From IMG/VR virus record IMGVR_UViG_2541047848_000001: a DNA stretch of 21,826 nucleotides; one strand, given 5' to 3'. Below are positions 840 through 13,477 of this stretch, one piece after another. Position 1 is the first letter of the stretch. The number at the start of each line of letters is the position of its first letter. A program made the translations under genes and the position numbers. The notes beneath the pieces were generated by a model, which saw only the letters and a list, made by a program, of their open reading frames with translations, had not been told where the DNA came from and did no database searches. This DNA is from a virus (lineage: Duplodnaviria > Heunggongvirae > Uroviricota > Caudoviricetes).

Positions 840-1364
840 TTATTGTTTAACCCATAATAATTCATTGATATTGAATCCCAACTTTTGAGCGGTTCGCACA
901 TAGTCTGCTTTTACTTTATCTGGAATAGTTGGGGTCCTTGCCAGAATCCATAGGTATTCTCTGTTCGGACCACTGACAAGAGCATACTTATACTCATCAT
1001 CCAGTTTGATTACATTATAGCCACCATAGAAGGGGCCAAAAAACGAAACCTTCAATGCTGCAGTTTTAGTATCTCCAGTAAAGTATGCTTTACCTTCGCT
1101 CTCGCTCCATTTATTTTTCGTTGGATCGTATCCACGGTTAAGTACACGAATCCCTCCGTCGTTCCGTTTTCCATAAGTAGCGCTGACCTGTTCCAGACCA
1201 CGTTCGAACCGGTTCTCGAGGCGAGCTATTTCATACCATTTTCCGAGGTAGCGGTTGGCGTCAAAATTTGTAATCGGCTGCACACCTTTAGGTGGTGTCG
1301 GGGCCTTACATGCTATAAGAGTGAAAGAGAGTGCAATGCCAGTCAACACAGGCCATAACTTCAT
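840..1364 (-). CDS. lipocalin-family outer-membrane lipoprotein (Blc-like)
   Basis: 174 aa. Signal peptide with lipobox LIAC. Lipocalin signature NFDANRYLGKWYEIARLENRFERG and ...KVSFFGPFYGGYNVI... closely parallel bacterial lipocalin Blc. AGGA SD upstream of the start on the minus strand. The only convincing minus-strand gene in the window. Confidence 0.8.
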   Translation of the reverse strand: MKLWPVLTGIALSFTLIACKAPTPPKGVQPITNFDANRYLGKWYEIARLENRFERGLEQVSATYGKRNDGGIRVLNRGYDPTKNKWSESEGKAYFTGDTKTAALKVSFFGPFYGGYNVIKLDDEYKYALVSGPNREYLWILARTPTIPDKVKADYVRTAQKLGFNINELLWVKQ

Positions 1365-1556
1365 AATAAATCCTGTACTTTTGATAGTTGAGAGTAAGTA
1401 TGAAAGATAGATGATTACGACCGATCACTTAAAGAACTTTCATACTATATTAGGAATAGTCCATAACAGAAAAATTGTCAGTGATGACGCCAGAAAGGCA
1501 ATTTATTCCGTGCACTACACAGTTTATGTGTTAATGAATTAGTCAAGGGGGAGAAT

Positions 1557-2516
1557 ATGATAAAAAAACCTGTGATTGGAATCAGCGGTTGTTTGGCCGG
1601 TTCTGCTGTTCGTTTTGATGGTGGTCACAAAAGAGCTGACTTTTTAATGGACAAATTAGTGGAATGGGTAACATTCAGACCAGTATGTCCGGAAATGGCT
1701 ATAGGGCTGCCAGTTCCGCGTCCTGCTCTACGTCTTGTGCGCTCGATGCAAGGAAATATACGGATGTGTTTCAGCCACGACCAGAATGAGGATGTGACAG
1801 AGAGAATGACAGAGTTTAGTCGTTCTTATATGGACAAATTAAAGGATGTATCGGGGTTTGTGGTTTGTGCTAAATCTCCCAGCTGTGGCATGGAGCGCGT
1901 GCGTGTCTATGATGAAAATGGTAATCGAGGTCGTAAAGATGGAGTGGGACTATTTACGAGCACTTTGATGGAAAAGTTTTCCTGGCTACCGGTTGAAGAG
2001 GATGGGCGATTACATGATCCAGTGCTTCGTGAGAATTTTGTTGAAAGAGTTTTTGCTTTGCATGAGCTCAATCACCTTTACAAGGAGAAATTATCAAGAA
2101 GAGAGTTATTAGCTTTTCATAGTCGTTATAAGCTTCAGTTGTTGGCGCATAGTCAGGCAGGCTATAAAGATATGGGACCATTTGTGGCTGCAATACACGA
2201 GTGGGCGGACCTTGAATCATACTTTGAGGTGTATCGTGATAAGCTGATGGCGATTCTCAGAAAACCTGCATCACGTAAAAATCACACGAATGTGCTGATG
2301 CATATACAGGGGTATTTTAGTAACTACTTAAGTACACGCCAGCGTAAAGAGTTGAGCGAGGTTATACTTAACTATCGTTCTGGCACATTACCTCTTCTTG
2401 CGCCGTTGACTCTGCTGAAGCATTATCTGGGTGAGTATCCTAATGATTACTTGCTTACACAGAATTACTTCGATCCCTATCCGGACGAACTGGCTCTAAG
2501 ACTGATGGTAAATTAA
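1557..2516 (+). CDS. DUF523/DUF1722 fusion protein (YbgA-like C-terminal domain; TudS-like Cys-containing N-terminal domain)
   Basis: 319 aa. N-terminus MIKKPVIGISGCLAGSAVRFDGG with further Cys at CPEMA and CAKSPSCG, the pattern of DUF523 [4Fe-4S] proteins. C-terminal half resembles YbgA/DUF1722. Strong SD AAGGGGGAG before ATG 1557. Confidence 0.7.
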   Translation: MIKKPVIGISGCLAGSAVRFDGGHKRADFLMDKLVEWVTFRPVCPEMAIGLPVPRPALRLVRSMQGNIRMCFSHDQNEDVTERMTEFSRSYMDKLKDVSGFVVCAKSPSCGMERVRVYDENGNRGRKDGVGLFTSTLMEKFSWLPVEEDGRLHDPVLRENFVERVFALHELNHLYKEKLSRRELLAFHSRYKLQLLAHSQAGYKDMGPFVAAIHEWADLESYFEVYRDKLMAILRKPASRKNHTNVLMHIQGYFSNYLSTRQRKELSEVILNYRSGTLPLLAPLTLLKHYLGEYPNDYLLTQNYFDPYPDELALRLMVN

Positions 2517-2858
2517 TTGTATGCGATATCATCCAAAAGGATGAGTTCCTGCATGCAGGATATTTACAATCGTAAAAACTACACTATGATACCCAGAGTG
2601 TCAGTTTGTATAAAAACTCTGTTTACGCTGAAGAAACAATTGAGATGCAACTTAAAGTTGGTAAACATGCCAGTCAAAATATATAATATTATGATTCCAC
2701 GCAGCTATATATAATATAACAGATTGGTTTAATAATTTGTCTTTGTGAGTTAAATACATAATTTTATACTTGTGATGCAATGAAATTTTCCTTATTGTTG
2801 AACTGGCGAATATTGATTTTCCACCTATACTTACCTGGTGTAACCCCAATGATATCAG

Positions 2859-3599
2859 GTGGATAATATGCCATACATATGTTCTATCATTTTGGTGTTG
2901 AACTCGTTTGATGTCCGAATTGGTAAAGAAGATATTTTGTTTAAAAAAGGAAGTGCTGTTCTCATTGATTACAATTTAAAAGATTTTTTTTCATCAAATA
3001 TAGATCATGTAATGATCGTAGATGTTGAAGAGAAAACAGTTAATGATTTCTTTAAAAGCAACACACTCTCACCTTTTTCTGTAAGAAGGTTTTATCCGGC
3101 ATACTTGATGGTGGAATGTGAAGATTTTTCATTGTTAAAGAACTTGATTGCATGCTTGAATTGTGATGGCAGAACTGTGGATTTTGTTAGAAATCAAATA
3201 TCACTTGCATGTCTTGCTATCTTATCTTCAGAGAAAATAGTGCAAAGTTTTTTATTTGGATGTCTTAATAGTTTAGGAAGTAAAGTTAAGGCTATTATTC
3301 ACACGGATATATCTGCAGCATGGAGACTTTGTGATATATCTTCAAGACTGTATCTGAGTGAAAGTCTGTTAAAAAGAAAATTAAAGCACGAAGGCTTATC
3401 ATTTAGTAAGTTAATTCTTGAAGAGCGAATGGTGATGGCGGAAAGGTTATTAAGCTACAATTTATATTCTGTTGGAAAAGTTGCTGAGATATGCGGTTAT
3501 GAAAACACGTCATATTTTGTAAGTGTTTTCAGAAGGTATTTTGGTGTTCCTCCCCATCAATATTCATCAAGATTTTTTTTAGAAAAAGACATGATGTAA
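2859..3599 (+). CDS. AraC/XylS-family transcriptional regulator, AppY/EnvY-like
   Basis: 246 aa. C-terminal HTH region ...SESLLKRKLKHEGLSFSKLILEERMVMAERLL...GYENTSYFVSVFRRYFGVPPHQY parallels AppY/EnvY. N-terminus M..YICSI...NSFD also AppY-like. Gene and upstream region are strongly AT-rich. Confidence 0.8.
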   Translation: MDNMPYICSIILVLNSFDVRIGKEDILFKKGSAVLIDYNLKDFFSSNIDHVMIVDVEEKTVNDFFKSNTLSPFSVRRFYPAYLMVECEDFSLLKNLIACLNCDGRTVDFVRNQISLACLAILSSEKIVQSFLFGCLNSLGSKVKAIIHTDISAAWRLCDISSRLYLSESLLKRKLKHEGLSFSKLILEERMVMAERLLSYNLYSVGKVAEICGYENTSYFVSVFRRYFGVPPHQYSSRFFLEKDMM

Positions 3600-3786: not shown

Positions 3787-4002
3787 ATGAAATCCATGGA
3801 TAAGTTAACAACGGGTGTCGCCTATGGCACCTCAGCAGGTAGTGCCGGTTACTGGTTTTTACAGCTGCTCGATAAAGTCACGCCCTCACAGTGGGCAGCA
3901 ATAGGTGTGCTGGGTAGCCTGGTATTTGGCCTGCTGACGTACCTGACAAACCTTTATTTCAAGATTAAAGAAGATAAGCGCAAGGCTGCGAGAGGTGAAT
4001 AA
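3787..4002 (+). CDS. essD: class II holin (phage 21 S-type pinholin) with dual-start motif
   Basis: 71 aa, [24 protein letters not shown]...; two TMDs; Met1/Met4 dual-start as in S21. SD GGAGGTGAGG upstream. Immediately precedes the endolysin. Confidence 0.9.
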
Positions 4003-4499
4003 TGCCTCCATCATTACGAAAAGCCGTTGCTGCTGCTATTGGTGGCGGAGCAATTGCTATAGCATCAGTGTTAATCACTGGCCCAAGTGGTAACGATGGT
4101 CTGGAAGGTGTCAGCTACATACCATACAAAGATATCGTTGGCGTATGGACTGTATGTCACGGGCATACAGGAAAAGACATCATTCCCGGTAAAACGTATA
4201 CCGAAGCAGAATGCAAAGCCCTCCTGAATAAAGACCTTGCCACGGTAGCCAGACAAATTAACCCGTACATCAAAGTCGATATACCGGAAACAACGCGCGG
4301 CGCTCTTTACTCGTTCGTCTATAACGTGGGCGCAGGCAATTTCAGAACATCTACTCTTCTTCGCAAAATAAACCAGGGCGATATCAAGGGCGCATGTGAC
4401 CAGCTACGTCGCTGGGCATACGCTGGCGGTAAGCAATGGAAAGGCCTGATGACTCGTCGTGAGATTGAGCGTGAGGTCTGTTTGTGGGGGCAACAATGA
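4002..4499 (+). CDS. rrrD: SAR endolysin (T4-lysozyme-like muramidase, R21 type)
   Basis: 165 aa. Gly/Ala-rich N-terminal signal-arrest-release segment [20 protein letters not shown]. Catalytic E-x8-D-x5-T spacing ([17 protein letters not shown]). Start overlaps the holin stop. Confidence 0.9.
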
Positions 4500-4960
4500 G
4501 CAGGGTAACCGCGATTATCTCCGCTCTGGTTATCTGCATCATCGTCTGCCTGTCATGGGCTGTTAATCATTACCGTGATAACGCCATTACCTACAAAGCC
4601 CAGCGCGACAAAAATGCCAGAGAACTGAAGCTGGCGAACGCGGCAATTACTGACATGCAGATGCGTCAGCGTGATGTTGCTGCGCTCGATGCAAAATACA
4701 CGAAGGAGTTAGCTGATGCGAAAGCTGAAAATGATGCTCTGCGTGATGATGTTGCCGCTGGTCGTCGTCGGTTGCACATCAAAGCAGTCTGTCAGTCAGT
4801 GCGTGAAGCCACCACCGCCTCCGGCGTGGATAATGCAGCCTCCCCCCGACTGGCAGACACCGCTGAACGGGATTATTTCACCCTCCGGGAACGACTGGTA
4901 ATGATGCAGGCCCAACTTGAAGGTGCTCAGCAATACATAACCGAGCAGTGTTTAAAGTAA
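4496..4960 (+). CDS. rzpD: Rz i-spanin
   Basis: ATG 4496 overlaps the endolysin stop (ATGA). N-terminal TMD then coiled-coil periplasmic domain. ORF-track start 4484 is an upstream GTG in the same frame. Confidence 0.85.
4716..4901 (+). CDS. rzoD: Rz1 o-spanin lipoprotein, embedded in Rz in the +1 frame
   Basis: 61 aa. Lipobox VVGC. Proline-rich [15 protein letters not shown]. Entirely nested within Rz. Confidence 0.85.
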
Positions 4961-5097
4961 AATCTTAACTACAATATGATTCATTTTGATGATTGTTTCA
5001 TAAGGAACAGTGAAGTAAGATCTAAGAGGAGTTAAATTTTATACAGTATAATCATAATATTGCAGCAAGGTGGTTATAATTGAAAGAATATTTAGAT

Positions 5098-6555
5098 ATG
5101 AATACATCTCATGTAAGAGTTGTTACTCATATGTGTGGGTTCCTGGTTTGGCTCTATAGTCTTTCAATGTTGCCACCAATGGTTGTAGCATTGTTTTATA
5201 AAGAAAAAAGCCTGTTCGTTTTCTTTATAACTTTCGTTATATTTTTTTGCATTGGTGGCGGAGCGTGGTATACAACTAAGAAATCTGGCATTCAATTACG
5301 TACCCGTGATGGGTTTATTATAATTGTAATGTTTTGGATTTTGTTTTCTGTTATTAGTGCATTCCCTTTATGGATTGACTCAGAACTTAATTTAACGTTC
5401 ATTGATGCTCTGTTTGAAGGGGTTTCTGGAATAACAACAACAGGAGCAACTGTAATTGATGATGTTAGTTCATTACCTCGGGCATATTTGTACTATCGGT
5501 CACAGTTAAATTTTATAGGTGGTTTAGGAGTTATTGTTCTGGCGGTTGCTGTATTGCCATTATTGGGTATTGGTGGTACAAAGCTTTATCAGTCAGAAAT
5601 GCCGGGGCCATTTAAGGATGACAAACTCACTCCCCGCCTGGCCGATACGTCACGGACACTGTGGATAACTTATTCTTTATTAGGTATTGCTTGTATTGTC
5701 TGTTATAGACTTGCAGGAATGCCTTTGTTTGATGCTATTTGTCACGGGATTTCCACAGTTTCGCTTGGTGGTTTCTCAACTCATAGCGAGAGTATCGGAT
5801 ATTTTAATAACTATTTGGTTGAGCTGGTGGCTGGTTCTTTTTCCCTGCTATCGGCTTTCAACTTCACTCTTTGGTATATTGTTATTAGCAGGAAAACGAT
5901 AAAACCTTTAATCAGAGATATTGAACTTCGTTTCTTTCTGTTAATAGCCTTAGGGGTGATCATTGTTACCTCTTTCCAGGTCTGGCATATAGGTATGTAT
6001 GACTTGCATGGAAGTTTTATTCATTCGTTTTTTCTTGCCAGCTCCATGCTCACTGATAATGGTTTAGCTACGCAGGATTATGCAAACTGGCCCACGCACA
6101 CGATAGTGTTTTTGCTGTCGTCAAGTTTCTTTGGGGGATGTATAGGTTCAACTTGTGGTGGAATTAAGTCACTTCGATTTCTTATACTTTTCAAACAAAG
6201 CAAACACGAGATAAATCAGCTTTCTCATCCCAGAGCGTTGTTGAGTGTAAATGTAGGAGGGAAGATAGTTACAGATCGTGTAATGAGGTCTGTATGGAGT
6301 TTCTTTTTTCTTTATACTCTCTTCACGGTGTTTTTTATACTGGTGTTAAATGGTATGGGATATGATTTTCTTACATCATTTGCAACAGTGGCTGCATGTA
6401 TTAATAATATGGGATTAGGTTTTGGGGCTACTGCATCGTCATTCGGAGTGCTTAATGACATTGCAAAATATTTAATGTGCATAGCTATGATTCTTGGTCG
6501 CCTTGAAATTTATCCTGTTATTATATTGTTTTCAGGTTTTTTTTGGCGCTCCTAA
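5098..6555 (+). CDS. trkG: Trk-system potassium uptake protein, TrkG/TrkH family
   Basis: Polytopic membrane protein with repeated pore-loop-like GxGG segments. 485 aa from ATG 5098, which is the TrkG length as I recall it. Position right after Rz/Rz1 is the known location of trkG in Rac. AT-rich. An in-frame TTG at 5080 has a better SD (see findings). Confidence 0.85.
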   Translation: MNTSHVRVVTHMCGFLVWLYSLSMLPPMVVALFYKEKSLFVFFITFVIFFCIGGGAWYTTKKSGIQLRTRDGFIIIVMFWILFSVISAFPLWIDSELNLTFIDALFEGVSGITTTGATVIDDVSSLPRAYLYYRSQLNFIGGLGVIVLAVAVLPLLGIGGTKLYQSEMPGPFKDDKLTPRLADTSRTLWITYSLLGIACIVCYRLAGMPLFDAICHGISTVSLGGFSTHSESIGYFNNYLVELVAGSFSLLSAFNFTLWYIVISRKTIKPLIRDIELRFFLLIALGVIIVTSFQVWHIGMYDLHGSFIHSFFLASSMLTDNGLATQDYANWPTHTIVFLLSSSFFGGCIGSTCGGIKSLRFLILFKQSKHEINQLSHPRALLSVNVGGKIVTDRVMRSVWSFFFLYTLFTVFFILVLNGMGYDFLTSFATVAACINNMGLGFGATASSFGVLNDIAKYLMCIAMILGRLEIYPVIILFSGFFWRS

Positions 6556-6641
6556 TATATGGCTGATTTATAATTGTGAGTTTAATATTATATTGACTCA
6601 CTCATTGATCCAATACCTAACTTTACCAGCAACACCTCCGC

Positions 6642-6676
6642 CCCCAGTAGCACTGGCTGCTGGGGTGCGTTTTATT
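6642..6676 (+). terminator. intrinsic terminator downstream of trkG
   Basis: 10-bp stem CCCCAGTAGC/GCTGCTGGGG (one G-U wobble), loop ACTG, then TGCGTTTTATT. Confidence 0.45.
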
Positions 6677-6692: not shown

Positions 6693-7481
6693 ATGAGCGA
6701 GAAATTAAAGATAGTCTATCGCCCATTACAAGAATTGTCACCGTATGCGCACAACGCCAGGACGCACAGTACTGAGCAGGTGGCACAACTGGTAGAAAGT
6801 ATTAAGCAATTCGGCTGGACTAATCCGGTGCTGATTGACGAAAAGGGCGAAATTATTGCGGGTCACGGTCGTGTTATGGCGGCTGAAATGCTCAAAATGG
6901 ATTCTGTTCCGGTCATTGTTCTGTCTGGCCTGACGGATGAGCAGAAAAAGGCGTACCGCCTGGCAGATAATCGCCTACCGATGAATGCTGGCTGGGATGA
7001 AGATCTGTTGCGGATGGAGCTGTCGGACCTAATCAATGCTGATTTTGATGTCTCCCTGACAGACTTCGGCCCGACAGAAATTGATGAACTGTTGACGGAT
7101 GTTTTGCCCGGTACAGGAAATAAGGAGGAGCCGTATACGACGAAAATTGATACGCCTGTTTATGAGCCGTCGGGCGGTAAACCGGATATCAGTGAACTGT
7201 ACGACGATACGAAAACTCAGGAGCTGATCAGCCGGATACGTTCGGCGTCCCTTGAGCCTGATATTGAGAAATTCCTCCTGTGTGCGGCAGAACGTCACAC
7301 GGTGTTTAATTTCAGCAGAATTGCGGACTATTACGCTCATGCCCCCGCTGAAATTCAGTGCCTTTTCGAGGAGTCGGCGCTGGTGATCATTGATTATCAG
7401 CAGGCTATTGAAAATGGATTTGTCCGAATGACGCAGCGCATGGTGGCGATCATGCATAGCGGGGAGGAGGAATATGCGTGA
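6693..7481 (+). CDS. ParB-like nuclease domain (ParB/sulfiredoxin fold) protein
   Basis: 262 aa. N-terminal ParB signature ...IVYRPLQELSPYAHNARTHSTEQVAQLVESIKQFGWTNPVLIDEKGEIIAGHGRVMAA. Acidic C-terminal half. Stop overlaps the start of the next gene. Confidence 0.8.
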   Translation: MSEKLKIVYRPLQELSPYAHNARTHSTEQVAQLVESIKQFGWTNPVLIDEKGEIIAGHGRVMAAEMLKMDSVPVIVLSGLTDEQKKAYRLADNRLPMNAGWDEDLLRMELSDLINADFDVSLTDFGPTEIDELLTDVLPGTGNKEEPYTTKIDTPVYEPSGGKPDISELYDDTKTQELISRIRSASLEPDIEKFLLCAAERHTVFNFSRIADYYAHAPAEIQCLFEESALVIIDYQQAIENGFVRMTQRMVAIMHSGEEEYA

Positions 7482-8124
7482 TGATTTTTGCGCCTTTATT
7501 CTGACTCACGGGCGACCGGACAAAGTTCTGACTTACCGGACGTTGCGTCGTGCTGGCTATACCGGGAAAATTTTTATCGTTGTTGATGATGAAGATAAGA
7601 CACGGCATCAGTACATGGCTGAATTTGGTGAACAGGTGCTGGTATTTTCCAAAGCAGATATTGCCAGTCGTTTTGACGAAGCCGATAATTTTGGTGACCG
7701 CCGCTCAATTTTTTACGCCCGTAATGCCTGTTTCGACCTGGCAAAACTGGTCGGGTGTAAATACTTCATTCAGCTCGATGATGATTATCACGAGTTCCAG
7801 TTTCGGGTGGATCGCAACTATGACCAGGCCTATTTCCCGATAAGGAAACTGGATGCGATCCTTTCTGAAATGCTGGCGTATTACGAATCAATACCCGCGC
7901 TTTCCATCGCTATGTCGCAGGGCGGGGATTTTCTTGGTGACAATGGCGGCCATGCTTCGTGGGTGAAACGCAAGGCAATGAACAGCTTTATCTGTTCGGT
8001 TGATCGACCGTTCTCATTCATGGGGCGCATTAACGAGGATGTGAATACGTACACGAATCTCGGTCGCCGTGGTGAATTGTTTATGACGATCGGTGCTGTC
8101 CAGTTAGGGCAGAAACAGACGTAG
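7474..8124 (+). CDS. DxD-motif nucleotide-sugar-transferase-like (GT-A fold-like) protein; possibly interrupted by an in-frame TAG
   Basis: ATG 7474 lies inside the ParB-like stop region, with SD GGGGAGGAGGAA just upstream. Motifs AFILTHGRPD...IFIVVDDED...IQLDDDY resemble the N-terminal strand, DD and DxD elements of GT-A/nucleotidyltransferase folds. An ORF in the same frame resumes 15 nt after the TAG (8140..8337). Confidence 0.5.
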   Translation: MRDDFCAFILTHGRPDKVLTYRTLRRAGYTGKIFIVVDDEDKTRHQYMAEFGEQVLVFSKADIASRFDEADNFGDRRSIFYARNACFDLAKLVGCKYFIQLDDDYHEFQFRVDRNYDQAYFPIRKLDAILSEMLAYYESIPALSIAMSQGGDFLGDNGGHASWVKRKAMNSFICSVDRPFSFMGRINEDVNTYTNLGRRGELFMTIGAVQLGQKQT

Positions 8125-8340
8125 AAAAACAGCGGCGGAATGACCGAGCTGTATCTGGATTCCGGGACCTACGTTAAAAGTTTTTATTCCGTCATGTATG
8201 CGCCGTCGTGCGTAAAAATCTCACTGATGGGCGCCAGCCATAAACGCATTCACCATCAGGTCACCTGGAACAACGCTGCAGTAAAAATCCTTCACGAAAA
8301 ATACAGGAAGAAGACACCCTGCATATTAATGGGGTGACAA

Positions 8341-8592
8341 ATGATTCCGTATTCGAAAGTCGAGTCTCTGGCAGCGTGCCGGATGACTGCACAACAAATC
8401 GCTGACGTACTGGATGTTGATCTGAACCGACTGAAAGAAAATCGGGAAGCAATGACAAATTTTTACGCGTCCATCCGTAAGGGCAGAGCGAAAGGTGAAG
8501 CCGAGCTACGGGCGGCATTGTTTAAGCTTGCCAGAAAAGGGGATGCCTTTGCCCTGCGCGAACTACTCAGGGTGGATAAAAATCAGGACTAA
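8341..8592 (+). CDS. small basic, probably DNA-binding protein upstream of the packaging genes (function unknown)
   Basis: 83 aa, MIPYSKVESLAACRMTAQQIADVLDVDLNRL... has an HTH-like segment. Tightly packed before the putative terS. Confidence 0.4.
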   Translation: MIPYSKVESLAACRMTAQQIADVLDVDLNRLKENREAMTNFYASIRKGRAKGEAELRAALFKLARKGDAFALRELLRVDKNQD

Positions 8593-8595
8593 CTG

Positions 8596-9690
8596 ATGAG
8601 CAGACCGGACTGGGGGGCGTTGCAGCAGGAGTATATTGCTGAATACACCCGCTCCGGTATATCTCCGGTGGCATGGTGTGAAGCAAGGGGACTGAATTAC
8701 GCAACAGCCCGTCGTTACATCAAAAAACCTCCGAAAAATGCGCAGACAGAAATGCGCAAAACTGCGCAAAAAAGTGCGCAGAAAAAATCTGCGCAGACTG
8801 CACAAAAGCGGAACGGAAAATCTCAGGAAAAAAAGCCAGTATCCGATGCGTACCTGAATGAGGGCGATGCGGAAGAAATTTCGTTCTGTCCCGATGAATT
8901 CGGCGTTTCTGACCAGCAGGCGAAATTCGCAATGCTGGTTGCCCAGGGGAAAAAACTCGTTGAGGCATATCGCCTGGCAGGATACGAGTCAGAGGGGAAT
9001 GCGGCCTACGTAACCGCCAGCCAGCTCCTAAGAAATCCTAAGGTTTTTCGTGCTATCAGCTACTTCCGCAATCAGTACCAGAAACGCTATACCGCAGACC
9101 TGGATTTACTGGTGAGTCAGTTGATGGCCATTGTCCAGGCCGACCCCAATCAGTTGGCACAATTTCGCCGTGTTAACTGCCGTTATTGCTGGGGCGAGAA
9201 TCATCACTACCAGTGGCGCGATATAGCAGAATTCGATAAGGCAGCGGCGCAGGCCTCCAGAGATGGCAAACCCGAGCCGGAATATGGTGGCCTTGGCTTT
9301 GTTGATAACGCCATACCCAATCCGGACTGCCCGAAGTGCTGCGGTGAGGGAACGGGGCAGCTTTATATGGCTGATACCACTCTGCTTGATGGGGATGCGC
9401 GGCAATTATATGCAGGGGCAAAGCTCGGAAAATTTGGTGTTGAGATCCTGCTGGAGGATAAGGCTGCCGCCCGGCGTGAATTGTTGCGTTTGCTTGCTGC
9501 TGGCGGGGCTTTATGTGCAGATAAGCGGCTACAGGAACTGGAAATTGAACGGCGCAGAATGGAAAACCAGAAGCTGCGCAAAGAGATCGAAACGGTGGAG
9601 GATAATGAACATCCCCAACCTGTTGCGATCAATATTAATGTGGTTGATGCCAGAGTAAGGAGTGATGAAGATGATCTCTCCGACGCTTAA
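8596..9690 (+). CDS. putative terminase small subunit / DNA-packaging recognition protein
   Basis: 364 aa directly upstream of, and overlapping, terL. N-terminal HTH-like segment (GISPVAWCEARGLNYATARRYIKK), basic low-complexity AQK linker, Cys cluster CRYC...CPKCC, C-terminal coiled coil. Assigned by position and architecture only. Confidence 0.5.
   Translation: MSRPDWGALQQEYIAEYTRSGISPVAWCEARGLNYATARRYIKKPPKNAQTEMRKTAQKSAQKKSAQTAQKRNGKSQEKKPVSDAYLNEGDAEEISFCPDEFGVSDQQAKFAMLVAQGKKLVEAYRLAGYESEGNAAYVTASQLLRNPKVFRAISYFRNQYQKRYTADLDLLVSQLMAIVQADPNQLAQFRRVNCRYCWGENHHYQWRDIAEFDKAAAQASRDGKPEPEYGGLGFVDNAIPNPDCPKCCGEGTGQLYMADTTLLDGDARQLYAGAKLGKFGVEILLEDKAAARRELLRLLAAGGALCADKRLQELEIERRRMENQKLRKEIETVEDNEHPQPVAININVVDARVRSDEDDLSDA
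8739..8804 (+). repeat. array of five palindromic TGCGCA hexamers (plus one TGCACA) at 10-15 bp spacing inside the putative terS
   Basis: TGCGCA at 8739, 8753, 8763, 8775, 8790; TGCACA at 8799. Read directly from the sequence. Confidence 0.7.
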
Positions 9691-10972
9691 TGTGCCTCAG
9701 GCGCGATTTCTTTCAATGCCCCACAAATTTAAAGCCTATGTCGCTGGTTTTGGCTCGGGTAAAACATGGATTGGGTGTGGTGGCATATGCAAGGGGATTT
9801 GGGAACATCCTGGTATAAATCAGGGATATTTTGCGCCAACGTATCCCCAAATTCGCGATATTTTTTACCCTACAGTGGAAGAAGTTGCTGCTGACTGGGG
9901 ATTGAATGTAAAAATTAATGAGGGAAATAAAGAGGTTCATTTTTATTACGGACGTCAGTATCGGGGAACCACTATCTGCAGATCGATGGAGAAGCCGCAA
10001 ACGATCGTCGGTTTCAAAATTGGTAATGCGCTGGTGGATGAACTGGACATTTTGCCGAAGGAAAAAGCCAGAACAGCGTGGCGCAAGATAATTGCGCGTA
10101 TGCGTTATAAGGTTGATGGACTTCGCAACGGTATTGACGTTACAACCACGCCGGAAGGATTCAAATTTGTCTACGAGCAGTTTGTTAAAGCCGTGCGTGA
10201 AAAAACAGAGCTGGCCTCACTGTATGGTCTGGTGCAGGCATCTACTTTCGATAATGAAAAGAACCTGCCAGCAGATTACATTCCTTCGCTTCTTGAGTCA
10301 TACCCTCCAGAGCTGATTAAAGCCTATCTTCGAGGACAGTTTACTAACCTGACAAGTGGTACTGTTTACCATCAGTTTGACCGGAAACTGAATAATTGCG
10401 AAGAAGTGGAGCAGCCAGGGGAGCCGATTTATATTGGGATGGATTTTAACGTTGGAAAGATGGCGGGGGTCGTCCATGTACTGCGTTTGGGGCTTCCATG
10501 TGCGGTAACTGAAATCATCAATGCCTACGATACACCGGATATGATCCGCATCATTAAAGAACGCTTCTGGCTGTATGACGGGAATGATTACCGGAAAGTG
10601 AGGGAGATTTATATTTATCCAGATGCTTCCGGAGATTCCAGAAAATCAAGTAACGCAAGTACGACGGATATAGCCCAGCTTAAGCAGGCTGGTTTTAACG
10701 TTGTGGTGAACAGCTCGAACCCGCCAGTAAAAGATCGCGTTAACTCAATGAATGCAATGTTCTGCAATGCCAATGGCGAACGTCGCTATAAAGTTAATGT
10801 GAAGCGTTGTCCGGTATATGCCGAATCTCTGGAGCAACAGGTCTGGGATGATAAGGGGGAGCCTGATAAAAAATCAGGCAACGATCACCCGAATGATGCC
10901 GGAGGCTATTTCATCGTTAAGCAATTCCCTATTATCAAACCGACCGGAAGAGTCACATCACTTCGGATTTAA
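9671..10972 (+). CDS. terminase large subunit
   Basis: Walker A GFGSGKT near the N-terminus. C-terminal nuclease-like acidic motifs (IGMDFN..., YPDASGDS). SD TAAGGAG at 9656-9662 favours ATG 9671. ORF-track start 9662 is an upstream GTG. Confidence 0.9.
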   Translation: MISPTLNVPQARFLSMPHKFKAYVAGFGSGKTWIGCGGICKGIWEHPGINQGYFAPTYPQIRDIFYPTVEEVAADWGLNVKINEGNKEVHFYYGRQYRGTTICRSMEKPQTIVGFKIGNALVDELDILPKEKARTAWRKIIARMRYKVDGLRNGIDVTTTPEGFKFVYEQFVKAVREKTELASLYGLVQASTFDNEKNLPADYIPSLLESYPPELIKAYLRGQFTNLTSGTVYHQFDRKLNNCEEVEQPGEPIYIGMDFNVGKMAGVVHVLRLGLPCAVTEIINAYDTPDMIRIIKERFWLYDGNDYRKVREIYIYPDASGDSRKSSNASTTDIAQLKQAGFNVVVNSSNPPVKDRVNSMNAMFCNANGERRYKVNVKRCPVYAESLEQQVWDDKGEPDKKSGNDHPNDAGGYFIVKQFPIIKPTGRVTSLRI

Positions 10973-10974
10973 TT

Positions 10975-12381
10975 ATGGCTGATATATCAACACCCAACCT
11001 CGACTATAACGATATGCTGGAGGCGTGGGATATTAACGACGCACTGATGGGCGGTACGCTTGAAATGCGCAGGCAGGGGGAAAATTATCTCCCAAAATGG
11101 CCTAACGAAGATGAAGACGCTTATAAAAAACGCCTGTCTGTGGCTACGCTACTTCCTGTGTATGAAGAAAGCATTAAGCAAAATATTGGACGCATATTTG
11201 CAGAGCCGACAGTATTGAGTGAGGAAACGCCGGAAAAAATCAGGGAATATGCAGAAAATATCGACATGGAGGGGAGCCGACTGGATGTGTGGGCGCAGCA
11301 ATTTTTCAGCCTCGCATTTCAGTATGGTGTGGCACATGCGCTGGTGGACTATCCACGAACGGATATGAAGGAGATCCGGACAAAAGCCGATGAAAATGCG
11401 GCTGGTGGTCGCCCATACGTTACGATGCTGAATCCACGCCAGGTTATTGGATGGAAATCGAAAGTTGAAAAAGGGAAAGTTGTTCTTACTGATTTGCGTA
11501 TAAAAGAAGTCATCATTGTTGATGGTGATGATTTCGGGCAGAAGAAGGTGGAGCAGATCCGCCATATTATGCCCCGTTGCGTTGAAATTTATCGACGCAG
11601 CGAAGGTACTAATGGCGAATCTGTCTGGACGCTTCACGAGTCATGGAATACCAGCCGTGATGATATTCCTCTGGTAACACTGTATACGAAGAAAACAGGG
11701 TTTATGCGTGGTACACCGCCATTGCTTAATCTTGGCTTGCTGAATATCAAGCACTGGCAAAGCCAGAGCGAGCAGGACAATATTCTTCATGTTGCCCGCG
11801 TCCCATTGCTGGTGGCCTACGGGCTGGACAGGAATGAAGAACTGACGGTTGGTGCATCCACCGCTACGATTTTTGAGGACAGAACAAAAAATGGCCTCGA
11901 ATATGTTGAACATAGTGGGGCAGCGATAGAATCTGGCGAAACATCACTGGAGAAGCTGGAAAATCAGATGCGTCATGCCGGCGCTAAACTTCTGCGGGCT
12001 GAAAATACATCCACCAAATCTGTTGATCAGACTAATGAAGAGCGGATGCAGGAAAACTCGCCGCTTTATACAATGGCGAACTCCCTCGAAGATGCCCTCG
12101 ATAATATTCTCCAGATAATGGCGGAATGGATCGGAGAGAGTTGCGGCGGCAATGTGGATGTGCGCACTGAACTGGATGTATCTGCCCAGGTGTTTGACTC
12201 ATCCTCCGCGCTGGCTGTTCAGTCATTGCGTCAGGGCGGTGATATACGTCAGATTGATGCGGTTCGGGTGTTGCAGGCGTTGAAATTTATCGATCAGGAT
12301 TCCCGTCCAGAGGAAGTGATCGATGAATTAAAAAATCAGAGTGTAATGCTGATGGAAATCAATGATGCAAACCGTGAATGA
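10975..12381 (+). CDS. portal protein
   Basis: 468 aa immediately after terL; size and position are typical. Acidic C-terminus. Confidence 0.8.
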   Translation: MADISTPNLDYNDMLEAWDINDALMGGTLEMRRQGENYLPKWPNEDEDAYKKRLSVATLLPVYEESIKQNIGRIFAEPTVLSEETPEKIREYAENIDMEGSRLDVWAQQFFSLAFQYGVAHALVDYPRTDMKEIRTKADENAAGGRPYVTMLNPRQVIGWKSKVEKGKVVLTDLRIKEVIIVDGDDFGQKKVEQIRHIMPRCVEIYRRSEGTNGESVWTLHESWNTSRDDIPLVTLYTKKTGFMRGTPPLLNLGLLNIKHWQSQSEQDNILHVARVPLLVAYGLDRNEELTVGASTATIFEDRTKNGLEYVEHSGAAIESGETSLEKLENQMRHAGAKLLRAENTSTKSVDQTNEERMQENSPLYTMANSLEDALDNILQIMAEWIGESCGGNVDVRTELDVSAQVFDSSSALAVQSLRQGGDIRQIDAVRVLQALKFIDQDSRPEEVIDELKNQSVMLMEINDANRE

Positions 12382-13477
12382 ACGGCTGCGTGATGAATCA
12401 ATTGCTCATGCAGTCTGGATATCTCGCTATAGCACTGGTGTGGCTGCCAGAATGGTGAAAACACTGAATGACAGCGATGCGGAGCTTACAGCTCGCCTGC
12501 TGGTGGCACTGGACAGCCTCGATCCAGGTAGTTTCACCGTTACGCGCCTGGAGTCACTTCTGGCGAGTGTCAGAGAGGTTAACCGCGCTGCTATTAACAG
12601 CATGTTTACCAGGCTCTCCGGAGAGCTGAACGAGCTGGCAGTTTATGAGGCTGGTTATCAGTTAAGTCTGTTTGATTCTCTGCTACCTGATTTTGTTGCT
12701 GATGTTCACCCTCTGGTTGGTATCTCACCTGATGCACTTTATGCCGCGGCAATGGCGCGACCATTCCAGGGACGACTGCTCAGTGAGTGGGCCTCAGATC
12801 TTGAGGCGGATCGGCTCAGACGCATAACAAATACGGTGCGTCAGGGTTTTTTGTTGGGGGATACCAATGAGCAGATCGCAAGAAAAATTCGGGGACATGT
12901 CAGTAAGGGATTTCAGGATGGTGCATTGCAGATGAGCCGGGCTAATGCGGCCAGCATTGCAAAAACAGCGGTTGGACATCTTGCTGCTACTGCCCGTGAG
13001 AGTTTTGCCAGCGCGAATAATGATTTGATTAAGGGTAAGCAATGGTTATCAACGCTTGATAATCGTACTACGCCACAATGTCGAATCAGGGATCGCCTCA
13101 AATATACGCTGAATAATAAACCTGTAGGTCACAGCGTGCCTTATTTGCAGGGGCCGGGAAAAATTCATTTCTGCTGCCGCTCAACGGAAACGTTCATTCT
13201 GAAATCAGCGAAGGAACTGGGTATTGATGTTCGTGATATTTCCCCGGCTGAGCGGGCCAGCATGGATGGCGTGGTGGCCGGAGATACAACCTACAGGGAA
13301 TGGTTTTTGCGTCAGCCTTACACCAGACAAAAACAGATTGTGGGGGAAACCCGGGCAAAGCTGATTCGGGATGGCGGTATGTCGCCAGATGAATTTTACA
13401 CCGATAAAGGCGAATGGCTGACGCTGAAGCAACTCCGTGAGCGTGATGCACAGGTATTCAGAAAAGCAGGGATTTAA
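12362..13477 (+). CDS. head morphogenesis protein (MuF / SPP1 gp7-like minor head protein)
   Basis: 371 aa following the portal and overlapping its 3' end. Domain organisation resembles the MuF family. Confidence 0.75.
   Translation: MMQTVNERLRDESIAHAVWISRYSTGVAARMVKTLNDSDAELTARLLVALDSLDPGSFTVTRLESLLASVREVNRAAINSMFTRLSGELNELAVYEAGYQLSLFDSLLPDFVADVHPLVGISPDALYAAAMARPFQGRLLSEWASDLEADRLRRITNTVRQGFLLGDTNEQIARKIRGHVSKGFQDGALQMSRANAASIAKTAVGHLAATARESFASANNDLIKGKQWLSTLDNRTTPQCRIRDRLKYTLNNKPVGHSVPYLQGPGKIHFCCRSTETFILKSAKELGIDVRDISPAERASMDGVVAGDTTYREWFLRQPYTRQKQIVGETRAKLIRDGGMSPDEFYTDKGEWLTLKQLRERDAQVFRKAGI

Follow-up and report, generated by a model that had tools for sequence, protein, structure and literature searches.

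To our knowledge, glycosylation of phage DNA is known only downstream of 5hmC, 5hmU or 5-hydroxycytosine pathways. In recent surveys, about 65% of the contigs with GT-A or GT-B enzymes had no such pathway and were deemed 'less likely' to act on DNA, and 288 of 753 phages carried 'solitary' TAGTs of unknown role. Among the members of the TAGT (TET-associated glycosyltransferase) family are the T2/T6 beta-glucosyl-HMC-alpha-glucosyltransferase and glycosyltransferases that act on the 5hmC DNA of phages (PMC13216743; bioRxiv 10.1101/2023.12.21.572611). The T2/T6 enzyme acts on DNA (PMC13216743; PMC13390438), and the motifs R...DDD...ED have been named for phage DNA GT-A enzymes (bioRxiv 10.1101/2023.12.21.572611). 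GREB1 is a TAGT-related protein O-GlcNAc transferase (PMC7968844).

ParB-like proteins form the second strand of this background. The phage protein ParB176 activates the thymine dioxygenase 5mYOX176 on dsDNA (O'Toole et al., PNAS 2026, PMC13229309), and a ParB hypothesis was put forward by Iyer et al. (2013), as relayed in PMC8256090 and PMC13229309. A survey of ParB-fold fusions published in 2025 never mentions a glycosyltransferase (PMC12704722).

We herein describe a gene pair in a 21,826-nt stretch of a tailed virus (Caudoviricetes; IMG/VR record IMGVR_UViG_2541047848_000001), the whole of which is called the window. An earlier note, made from the letters alone, had presented the pair as a candidate uncharacterised module; this label needs qualifying, as experiments published in 2026 had already shown a ParB-like protein to activate a DNA-modifying enzyme of a phage (PMC13229309). 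The pair probably adds sugars to viral DNA. The observed base of this reading is family membership, fold, intact motifs, obligate synteny, a modular partner and a late/packaging position.

The late gene pair and its transferase

The partner gene (6693-7481, + strand), of the ynaK type and annotated as a 'ParB/Srx N-terminal domain protein', is an intact ORF of 262 aa from ATG to TGA; RefSeq WP_001752316.1 is the partner protein of a near-identical locus. The TAGT gene (7474-8337, +), named 'GREB1-related protein' by NCBI/PGAP, is a pseudogene here, with an in-frame TAG at 8122. As the second ORF starts with the ATG at 7474, the two ORFs have 8 nt in common (ATGCGTGA, read from the sequence). 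The coupling junction (7461-7481, +) consists of the SD-like GGGGAGGAGGAA at 7461-7472, this ATG and the TGA of the partner at 7479-7481, and the overlapping stop and start codons together with the SD-like stretch uphold the co-expression that had been proposed for the pair. Between trkG and the cassette lies a terminator-like hairpin with a T-run (6642-6675, +), whose 10-bp stem contains 7 G-C pairs and is followed by TGCGTTTTAT. The hairpin closes the trkG moron, and the cassette is therefore probably read by a Q-antiterminated late transcript. Both genes are late genes of an E. coli prophage, situated in the late/packaging operon. The interval from the TAGT gene to the small terminase is occupied by an 83-aa ORF (8341-8592, +) of uncertain cassette membership; many enterobacterial loci have an ORF of 83-86 aa at the same place, and profile searches including PADLOC gave the 83-aa ORF no family match.

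The product of the second ORF matches Pfam PF20691 (TAGT) with an E-value of 4.9e-36 and 125 bits (cut-off 27.5), the match spanning residues 8-222 and profile positions 4-205 of 205, and it matches phrog_842 at 1.8e-102. It contains THGR (residues 11-14), VVDDED (36-41) and IQLDDDY (99-105). The last of these harbours the DDD (DxD) metal and nucleotide-sugar motif (residues 102-104; 7777-7785, +), which is at least 90% conserved in 63 homologues, and R14, D41, R83, N188 and D190 are also conserved in this set and all kept in the window. R14, D102-104, N188, E189, D190 and Y194, which make up the active-site motifs R...DDD...ED(Y/F), are present and conserved. An AF2 model of P0011, a homologue 84% identical to this product, has a pLDDT of 92; Foldseek places this model closest to GT-A enzymes in the PDB and to TAGT proteins in BFVD, the latter with TM-scores up to 0.84. 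A conserved C-terminal extension of about 65 residues (223-287) reaches beyond the Pfam TAGT model. Gene 2 is a TAGT-family GT-A glycosyltransferase with intact catalytic motifs. The earlier description as a DxD-type transferase of GT-A or nucleotidyltransferase-like fold therefore stands in its first part, while the clear assignment of the protein to PF20691 makes 'nucleotidyltransferase-like' superfluous.

The copy in the window carries an inactivating amber codon (8122-8124, +), recognised by comparison with intact copies as a change from CAG to TAG at Gln217. There are 216 codons before the TAG, after which the same frame continues to the TGA at 8335-8337; with the TAG repaired, the gene has 287 codons. 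Phage vB_EcoS-683R6 and strain D9 both have CAG at this site, and the Gln (Q218 of P0011) is invariant and lies inside the motif TQxNxGG. The transferase of the window is dead, the amber codon at an invariant Gln cutting off the last 70 conserved residues. The TAG allele is rare, being carried by 12 of 906 E. coli genomes, and 882 of the 906 copies are one base off this allele in a 57-nt probe. PGAP calls the identical allele a pseudogene, and the element in the window is most probably a decaying prophage, because all inspected genomes with the identical allele hold it in an IS-riddled defective prophage. This state of the copy, a dead allele in a decaying prophage, had been overlooked by the earlier note. 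Programmed readthrough or suppression of the TAG is rejected in view of the lack of any tRNA gene in the window, the CAG in a directly read copy, the single probe base separating 882 of 906 copies from the allele and the IS-disrupted state of the prophages that carry it.

The C-terminus is set by a length polymorphism of a G-run (8331-8334, +), identified from the alignment and from homologue lengths: GGGG, as in the window, gives 287 aa, and GGGGG, as in most E. coli copies, gives 310 aa. TAGT homologues outside E. coli have 284-290 aa. PGAP flags the gene as 'frameshifted', but we reinterpret this supposed 3' frameshift as the G-run polymorphism, since the length in the window agrees with other genera.

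The partner protein and its pairing with the transferase

The partner begins with a ParB_N (ParB/Srx) domain (residues 1-95; 6693-6977, +), delimited by Pfam, alignment to Spo0J, AF2 and Foldseek. The ParB/sulfiredoxin fold that had been assigned to this protein is borne out by matches to Pfam ParB_N (PF02195; 29.4 bits, cut-off 26.3) and to phrog_620 (2e-89). In the alignment to Spo0J (1vz0), ELVAGERRYRAA pairs with EIIAGHGRVMAA, and Box II is degenerate, with AGHGR (GHGR in place of the GERRxRA arginine box). The domain has pLDDT values of 80-96 in the AF2 model, and Foldseek relates it to Noc, ParB, PadC and Srx (sulfiredoxin) with E-values from 1e-5; matches of the full-length model are restricted to ParB_N. 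Neither an HTH nor a ParB-C domain gave a Pfam match in the partner.

A short helical segment follows (residues 103-134; 6999-7094, +; AF2 helices 103-115, 120-123 and 127-134). Together with ParB_N it resembles the N-terminal module of phage DNA methyltransferases, as seen in the matches to PADLOC MTase_II (1.2e-37 over residues 10-141) and phrog_498 (6e-50). A predicted disordered linker (residues 139-154; 7107-7154, +), with AF2 pLDDT below 50 throughout, leads into an invariant motif, Y-[TS]-x-K-I-x-x-P-x-Y-E-P (residues 148-159). Y148, P155, Y157 and P164 are invariant both in an alignment of 36 sequences and in one of 64.

The remainder of the protein is an acidic C-terminal TAGT-partner domain (CTD) of about 105 residues (residues ~145-250; 7125-7442, +), delimited by conservation and by a CTD profile. 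Its conservation is far above that of ParB_N, and the median pI is 4.8 for the CTD and 8.6 for the TAGT, an acidic domain beside a basic enzyme. The CTD gave no significant match to Pfam or to PDB sequences, and matches to designed armadillo repeats were set aside as spurious. A search with the CTD profile retrieved 3122 proteins; the best 120 of these are stand-alone proteins of 119-204 aa, most of them 125-140 aa, with no Pfam domain, and the stand-alone proteins retain the Y-[TS]-x-K-I-x-x-P-x-Y-E-P motif. It is thus the CTD that is the TAGT-specific partner; ParB_N is optional, and the CTD often occurs alone. The earlier note had dwelt on the ParB fold and had overlooked the CTD as the specific part.

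The partner and the transferase co-occur in other genomes almost without exception, as had been anticipated for a genuine pair. A full-length homologue of the partner lies directly upstream of the TAGT in 90 of 92 TAGT-seeded loci, the two loci without it both being cut by a contig end, and the partner is followed by a TAGT in every one of the 83 loci newly retrieved during the partner-domain searches or later. In 78 of these 83 loci at most 30 nt separate the aligned part of the partner from that of the TAGT, and one gene is inserted in the other 5. For the junctions across loci we claim only that the genes overlap or abut, and no exact overlap lengths are given because the start-codon heuristic over-called upstream GTG and TTG starts. 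Stand-alone CTD genes adjoin a TAGT in three of three independent contexts without ParB_N. Adjacency is kept even where the partner falls to 32% identity, with the TAGT at 57-60%. The pairing of partner and TAGT is far beyond chance.

Carriers of the pair include enterobacteria at one end and Lactobacillus phage c5 and the archaeal virus HHTV-2 at the other, and it is also present in large Vibrio phages. Of 5426 complete E. coli genomes, 1580 possess the module and 907 of these hold at least 80% of the pair; the CTD partner occurs in 28 phage records, none of them from T-even phages. ParB-TAGT fusions were considered as Rosetta-stone evidence and rejected, since the long TAGT proteins carry an MTase, sulfotransferase, kinase-like domain or second TAGT and not ParB; a single possible CTD-TAGT fusion, P0081, may be an artefact.

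Possible acceptors of the sugar

On balance, we lean towards a model in which the transferase glycosylates DNA late in infection and is loaded or activated by a ParB-type adaptor, much as in the published ParB-dependent thymine dioxygenases. The cassette is a late-operon gene pair made of a TAGT glycosyltransferase and its dedicated partner, in which the CTD may bind the TAGT and the ParB_N and helical module may bring the complex to double-stranded DNA or clamp it there. Shortly before packaging, the basic transferase would take a sugar from a nucleotide-sugar and attach it to the DNA of the phage itself, the presumed acceptor. In relatives the sugar might then be extended, methylated or sulfated, and the progeny DNA would be poorly cut by host nucleases, a presumed protective role. 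Relatives have the TAGT fused to a class I MTase, a sulfotransferase, a P-loop-kinase-like domain or a second TAGT; some loci have a His-phosphatase/cytidylyltransferase protein as an insertion or fusion, and an epimerase/dehydratase is found near some pairs. Of the activities earlier proposed under a nucleic-acid-directed role, DNA modification is the best supported, and nothing was found in support of abortive defence. Against the model, the relative GREB1 glycosylates protein (PMC7968844), the arginine box of ParB_N is degenerate, and no HTH was detected.

No TET_JBP or thymidylate-synthase Pfam match was obtained among the called genes of 9 neighbourhoods, both are absent from the 25 most frequent of 34-35 flank families, and the annotations of two complete genomes, those of phage c5 and a Rac-like phage, list neither of them. 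A tblastn search with ThyA over 2.3 Mb of loci, a low-sensitivity test with an approximate query sequence, gave no match. With no hydroxymethyl-pyrimidine enzyme seen, the known chemistry of the TAGT family is therefore without an obvious substrate here, and we found no paper reporting modified DNA in any phage with the pair. We consider it possible, and put it forward tentatively, that the CTD and the TAGT, whether or not ParB_N is present, decorate DNA with a sugar independently of 5-hydroxymethyl-pyrimidines, the sugar being attached instead to a canonical base or another DNA nucleophile under the guidance of the ParB-type module.

The missing hydroxymethyl-base pathway would also be explained if the acceptor were a protein, and this is the alternative that survives best, unlikely as we judge it. 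By analogy with the self-glucosylation of glycogenin and the O-GlcNAcylation carried out by GREB1, itself a TAGT relative that acts on protein, the TAGT might modify a Tyr or Ser/Thr in the linker motif of its partner, or a viral or host protein presented by the CTD. The invariant Y148, [T/S]149 and Y157 are proline-flanked, lie in a region predicted to be unstructured and recur in the stand-alone CTD proteins. Such a setting is typical of an enzyme-docking peptide. Conversely, a conserved linear motif may just as well serve for binding, and both the repeated joining of the CTD to the ParB_N module shared with DNA methyltransferases and the location in packaging or replication regions point to DNA, on which the other characterised TAGT relatives in the cited papers and the base-J glucosyltransferase also act.

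An anti-phage or exclusion function, which appears improbable, has been raised as an idea in bioRxiv 10.1101/2023.12.21.572611. The pair would over-glycosylate the incoming 5hmC, 5hmU or glucosyl-hmC DNA of other phages, such as the T-even phages, and thereby block replication; the acceptor of the T2/T6 TAGT is indeed glucosyl-hmC DNA, and the E. coli prophages have no acceptor pathway of their own. However, the genes are probably silent in lysogens because they stand behind a terminator in a Q-dependent late operon, and large Vibrio phages carry the cassette as well, as does phage c5, in whose annotated genome no integrase is seen. PADLOC gave no match for the transferase, and in the partner it recognised just the ParB_N module, with an MTase model. 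Defence cargo is usually kept in defective prophages, whereas this cassette is lost by mutation in them.

Most pairs sit directly upstream of terminases of at least four families. Across 33 non-redundant loci, 28 large-terminase ATPase-domain matches fall within three genes downstream (Terminase_6N, 16; Terminase_3, 9; TerL_ATPase, 2; GpA_ATPase, 1), and in Lactobacillus phage c5 the pair constitutes the first two genes after cos. This consistent position right before the terminase genes, together with the common annotation 'ParB-like nuclease', would suit a packaging accessory, with the ParB-like protein marking or cutting the DNA around pac or cos on behalf of the terminase and the transferase playing an unrelated or structural part. 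We hold this to be distinctly improbable. A specific terminase partnership is argued against by the variety of terminases that accompany the cassette, which come from at least four unrelated families; some pairs lie in replication modules beside SSB, helicase or primase, far from any terminase; in stand-alone CTD versions without ParB_N the TAGT is still always there; and the catalytic motifs of the transferase are strongly conserved. Neither protein is a head, tail or terminase component, as had been stated before, and the second is a TAGT and no packaging accessory.

Lysogenic conversion through the glycosylation of a cell-surface glycan (O-antigen or teichoic acid), as might be imagined from TarP and other GT-A enzymes of prophages, is barely credible. 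TarP ranks second among the structural matches of the TAGT model in the PDB, but the similarity there is weak (TM-score 0.42-0.49, E about 1e-5) and goes no further than a generic GT-A fold. No flippase or membrane partner was found among the neighbouring genes, the pair belongs to the late operon and not to a lysogeny module, its carriers include an archaeal virus as well as phage c5 with its integrase-free annotated genome, and the partner is ParB-like.

A large share of the 'solitary' TAGTs come with a dedicated partner domain outside known families, often fused to the ParB module that phages put on DNA methyltransferases, and this domain may serve as a marker gene for a possibly new DNA modification. 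If the acceptor is other than a hydroxymethyl-pyrimidine, this would amount to a widespread, unrecognised class of glycosylated viral DNA in tailed viruses that infect bacteria or archaea, whether temperate or lytic, with E. coli prophages numbering in the hundreds among them. The practical relevance concerns restriction and CRISPR evasion by temperate phages, sequencing artefacts and new DNA-glycosylating enzymes as tools. Testing is easy in E. coli as the standard host, because the module is so common in its complete genomes.

Comparison with known systems

GREB1 has a TAGT-type GT domain in common with the protein of the window, but it is a eukaryotic protein, large and cytoplasmic, whose target is ER-alpha, and it has no ParB-type partner (PMC7968844). 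The partition proteins ParB, Noc and KorB share the N-terminal fold of our partner, whereas the partner has no detected HTH, no ParB-type dimerisation domain and a degenerate arginine box; it scores 38 bits against TIGR00180, far under the 58-bit cut-off, and no ParA was found among the scanned ORFs of the window or in the annotation of near-identical loci.

The T2/T6 enzyme and the TET/5mYOX-associated TAGTs have the family (125 bits), the GT-A fold and the R...DDD...ED motifs in common with the transferase of the window. In contrast, identity to a T-even-type enzyme of a T4-like phage is only about 13%, and no hmC/hmU synthesis, alpha-/beta-GT or 5mYOX is seen near the window pair. The T2/T6 enzyme yields its product from alpha-glucosyl-5hmC, made by a co-encoded dCMP hydroxymethylase and alpha-GT, whose genes are absent from the window and from related complete phages; judging from these sequences, the phrog_842 label (T2/T6 beta-glucosyl-HMC-alpha-glucosyltransferase) should not be transferred. 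The association with TET/JBP (5mYOX) or a hydroxymethylase, after which PF20691 is named, is likewise absent here, and is not a Pfam requirement.

The ParB_N-DNA methyltransferase fusions seen in phages and prophages (phrog_498, PADLOC MTase_II; Kaljevic et al. 2025, PMC12704722) have a homologous ParB_N and helical module (E 1e-37 to 6e-50), which temperate phages commonly carry. There the module is covalently attached to the catalytic domain, whereas here it is carried by an adaptor domain with a separate enzyme.

A close likeness exists to ParB176 and 5mYOX176 (PMC13229309), in which a phage ParB-like protein is also encoded beside a post-replicative DNA-modifying enzyme. By its published description, ParB176 has the same layout, namely a nucleotide-binding ParB_N, a short helical piece, a long unstructured linker and a C-terminal domain, with no recognisable HTH, and terminase and glycosyltransferase genes are likewise frequent neighbours (PMC13229309). 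The enzymes differ, with an Fe/2OG dioxygenase there and a GT-A glycosyltransferase and no dioxygenase here. Both domains of ParB176 are needed, whereas in our pair the CTD alone is conserved and ParB_N is dispensable in many phages. The idea of ParB as an activator of DNA-modifying enzymes would thereby be extended from dioxygenases to glycosyltransferases.

A conserved gene pair in the late region of a Rac-like prophage

The window corresponds to the late part of an E. coli lambdoid prophage that resembles Rac. Antiterminator Q (292-684) and the lysis cassette essD/rrrD/rzpD (3787-4960) enclose three cargo genes (840-3599) that are odd content for a late operon, namely a lipocalin gene (840-1364, minus strand), which holds an IS3 in relatives, a YbgA-family/2-thiouracil-desulfurase-like gene (1557-2516) and an AraC-type HTH regulator (2859-3599). 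The potassium transporter gene trkG (5080-6555) belongs to a self-contained Trk moron (5080-6675), inserted downstream of the lysis cassette and ahead of the late packaging genes and closed by a strong terminator-like hairpin (6642-6665; 10-bp stem, 7 G-C pairs) with a T-run behind it. Because the hairpin splits trkG from the two genes that follow, these probably lie on the Q-dependent late transcript.

The first of them, the partner gene ORF1 (6693-7481), matches ParB_N (PF02195) and phrog_620, and is named "ynaK / ParB/Srx family N-terminal domain-containing protein" in RefSeq. ORF2, the TAGT gene, starts at 7474 within ATGCGTGA, preceded by GGGGAGGAGGAA, and its frame to 8337 matches PF20691, the TET-associated glycosyltransferase (TAGT) family (E 4.9e-36), and phrog_842, under the RefSeq names "GREB1-related protein" or "hypothetical protein". 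An earlier note had described the coupled genes from the sequence alone; all the elements it listed are found in the window, and its structural guesses, a ParB/sulfiredoxin fold and a GT-A-type transferase fold, were right.

Further downstream, an 83-aa ORF (8341-8592) precedes the small terminase. It has no match in Pfam, NCBIfam or PADLOC; an ORF of 83-86 aa fills its position in many enterobacterial loci, and some positional counterparts elsewhere match HTH families. It could act as an accessory of the terminase or form the third gene of the cassette. The small terminase is unusually long (8596-9690, 364 aa), with a Terminase_2 match limited to residues 123-321 and a 3' end that overlaps the T4-type large terminase (9662-10972). 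After the portal gene comes a Mu-F-like minor head protein (12362-13477, 371 aa; Phage_Mu_F over residues 154-275 only), followed by P22-type coat and tail genes. The counterpart of the Mu-F-like protein in the related phage record ON470595 is annotated "NAD+--asparagine ADP-ribosyltransferase", and a toxin-like domain on this ejected head protein is possible.

The partner gene of the window is intact, and the transferase gene is a pseudogene. An in-frame TAG at 8122 replaces codon 217, which is CAG in the intact gene of phage vB_EcoS-683R6; this glutamine, inside a TQxNxGG motif, is invariant in 63 homologues, and truncation costs ORF2 about 70 residues with ten more invariant positions. Perfect matches to a 57-nt probe with the TAG at its centre came from only 12 of 906 complete E. 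coli genomes; the remaining probe-matching copies were one base off, and in strain D9, whose copy was the only one read directly, that base is the C of CAG. Inspected genomes with the identical allele carry it in defective prophages riddled with IS elements, at the ybhC/bio site. The allele of the window is rare and dead, and the prophage that carries it is most probably decaying. The second difference from the vB_EcoS-683R6 gene, a G-run at 8331-8334 that is one G shorter, is no defect: GGGG gives 287 aa, as in Salmonella, Klebsiella, Pantoea, Yersinia and others (284-290 aa), and the common E. coli allele GGGGG gives 310 aa, with a 24-residue tail overlapping the next ORF. Window-type alleles are flagged "frameshifted" because the PGAP reference is the 310-aa form. 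For the partner ORF too, which is intact at 262 aa, PGAP is inconsistent: genomes with identical DNA are annotated either with the full protein WP_001752316.1 or with a truncated ynaK pseudogene of 258 nt ("missing C-terminus"), as the prophages of E. coli MB46 and 63-2 (loci L001 and L179) show. This inconsistency stems from the K-12 Rac remnant.

The C-terminal domain of ORF1 as the true partner of the transferase

The pairing is very strongly meaningful. Of 5426 complete E. coli genomes, 1580 have both genes together, and in 907 of these the query coverage reaches 80% or more. With TAGT as bait, a full-length ORF1 homologue lay directly upstream in 90 of 92 fetched loci, the two exceptions ending at a contig end, with partners as little as 32% identical where TAGT is still at about 57-60%. 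Among 33 non-redundant loci, 28 matches to large-terminase ATPase domains of four families were found at most three genes downstream (Terminase_6N 16, Terminase_3 9, TerL_ATPase 2, GpA_ATPase 1), and the head modules beyond them are of P22, HK97 or lambda type. The upstream flank varies and holds genes for lysis, a primase, an HNH or a radical-SAM protein. Lactobacillus phage c5 (31.8 kb) has the pair as ORF1/ORF2, its first genes past cos (L178 90-1713); the pair is gp21/gp22 in the archaeal Haloarcula virus HHTV-2 (L177 5533-7195), and is also present in Nocardia phage NTR1 and Lactobacillus gasseri phages. Vibrio phages of 191 kb carry a shortened form inside the replication module, a stand-alone partner domain of 139 aa annotated "putative ParB protein" (phiKT1024, L176 6929-8358) followed by a hypothetical 333-aa ORF at the TAGT position. 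Cultured viruses with the pair are ready experimental systems.

Within ORF1, the real partner of TAGT is the C-terminal domain (CTD). An alignment of 36 partners showed a variable ParB_N half, with Box II reading GHGR, GNMR, GHQR and so on, and a far better conserved C-terminal half (about 145-250), with Y148, P155, Y157, P164, H202 and D234 among the invariant residues. A profile of this half alone retrieved 3122 protein clusters. The best 120 are stand-alone, have no Pfam domain and measure 119-204 aa, most of them 125-140. In three independent contexts such a small CTD gene overlaps or directly adjoins TAGT, with ParB_N absent. Across 83 loci (73 new ones from the CTD-profile bait, seven with stand-alone CTDs, two from E. 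coli and one fetched separately), TAGT lay downstream of the CTD in all 83 and at most 30 nt away in 78; in the other five, a single gene is inserted between them. The insert, found in some marine or metagenomic phages (L151, L164, L166, L172), encodes a protein of about 320 aa with histidine-phosphatase-like and HxGH cytidylyltransferase-like domains, as read by eye from translations, and in L154 (5572-7254) this protein is fused to a ParB_N-CTD partner (560 aa). The insertion and the fusion suggest that these phages make an activated donor for the transferase. The CTD has no significant sequence relative in Pfam or PDB, and its median pI is acidic, 4.8 versus 8.6 for TAGT. One protein from a single metagenomic contig (P0081, 381 aa) joins a partial CTD (residues 2-68) to a full TAGT (79-359), which may reflect a genuine gene fusion or else an artefact, from a frameshift or the assembly, where the two genes overlap.

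Predicted structures and domain fusions

An AF2 model of P0011, which is 84% identical to ORF2 (pLDDT 92, pTM 0.90), gave generic GT-A enzymes as its best PDB matches, including mycobacterial 3ckq, TarP, K4CP and LARGE1 (E about 1e-5, TM-score 0.42-0.49), and TAGT-domain proteins as its best viral-model matches (TM-score up to 0.84). A "beta-glucosyl-HMC-alpha-glucosyltransferase" from a T4-like phage ranked only 24th, at 13% identity. The R...DDD...ED(Y) motifs of phage DNA GT-A enzymes are all present in ORF2. Close TAGT homologues (42-58% identity) occur as fusions to a class I SAM methyltransferase, a sulfotransferase, a second TAGT or an N-terminal P-loop kinase-like domain, the last identified by visual inspection of its Walker-A motif and without a Pfam match (P0134, P0137, P0151, P0170, P0146, P0167, P0191, P0143, P0159). 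Tandem TAGT, epimerase/dehydratase and extra GT1/GT2 genes lie near TAGT genes, and on a Sphingomicrobium-labelled contig (L004 2207-3938) tandem TAGT genes follow a single ParB-like gene. Together, the fusions and neighbours are the signature of a glycan-building and -tailoring pathway.

In the AF2 model of the partner (mean pLDDT 80), the ParB_N fold is confident and matches Noc, ParB, PadC and sulfiredoxin. After it come a short helical segment (residues 103-134) and a disordered linker (139-154), which runs into an invariant Y-[TS]-x-K-I-x-x-P-x-Y-E-P peptide. The four-helix core (173-227) is again confident, and the tail, with invariant SALVIIDF...AIE.GF, is of low confidence, as might be expected of a part that becomes ordered on binding a partner.

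Proposed function and comparison with known systems

On the reading with most support, the partner serves as adaptor for a DNA-glycosylating TAGT. The CTD would hold TAGT, the ParB_N and helical module, where present, would carry the complex to dsDNA, and TAGT would then glycosylate phage DNA after replication and before packaging, leaving a sugar that may be protective. Family, fold, motifs, obligate synteny, the modular domains of the partner and the place in the operon are shown by the data, and from them physical binding, a DNA acceptor and protection are inferred. The main weakness of this reading is that no enzyme making a hydroxymethyl acceptor, as used by other known DNA-acting TAGTs, was seen in the annotated neighbourhoods, the commonest flank families, or the genomes of phage c5 and a Rac-like phage. 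New acceptor chemistry is one possibility, and the most interesting case. Another is a protein acceptor, perhaps the partner's own invariant Tyr/Thr motif, with glycogenin and GREB1 as precedents; TAGT might also act on modified foreign DNA. A pure packaging role and surface-glycan conversion both fit the pair poorly.

Published systems bear on the proposed adaptor. PF20691 covers the T2/T6 enzyme that places a second glucose on glucosyl-hmC DNA (PMC13216743; PMC13390438), and "solitary" TAGTs of unknown function were counted in 288 of 753 phages (PMC13216743). GT-A enzymes adjacent to 5mYOX glycosylate 5hmC in DNA, and about 65% of GT-containing contigs, having no base-modification neighbour, were judged less likely to encode DNA enzymes (bioRxiv 10.1101/2023.12.21.572611). 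Thymine dioxygenases have cognate ParB-like proteins that activate them, specifically on dsDNA, and one such activator, ParB176, consists of an NBD, a structured piece of about 20 aa, an unstructured linker of about 50 aa and a CTD, with no DNA-binding domain (PMC13229309). Our partner model has the same layout. Its residues 10-141 also match the N-terminus of phage DNA methyltransferases (PADLOC MTase_II, E 1.2e-37; phrog_498, 6e-50); the ParB_N and helical module occurs in 407 phage records, many labelled methylases, and only 28 of these have the CTD.

The earlier note had proposed an uncharacterised module. The pairing is real, but ORF2 falls in a family that already has a name, and the concept of a ParB aiding a DNA-modifying enzyme was already published. 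The idea that ParB directs modification enzymes reportedly originates with Iyer et al. in 2013. Our literature search found no paper on the pair, on ynaK function or on the CTD, and a 2025 survey of ParB-fold fusions describes fusions to methyltransferases and DUFs and never mentions a glycosyltransferase (PMC12704722). Compared with these systems, the novelty lies in a dedicated partner domain that had not been recognised before, in the wide spread of the module among viruses of bacteria and archaea, and in its apparent independence, judged from gene content, of hydroxymethyl-pyrimidine pathways.
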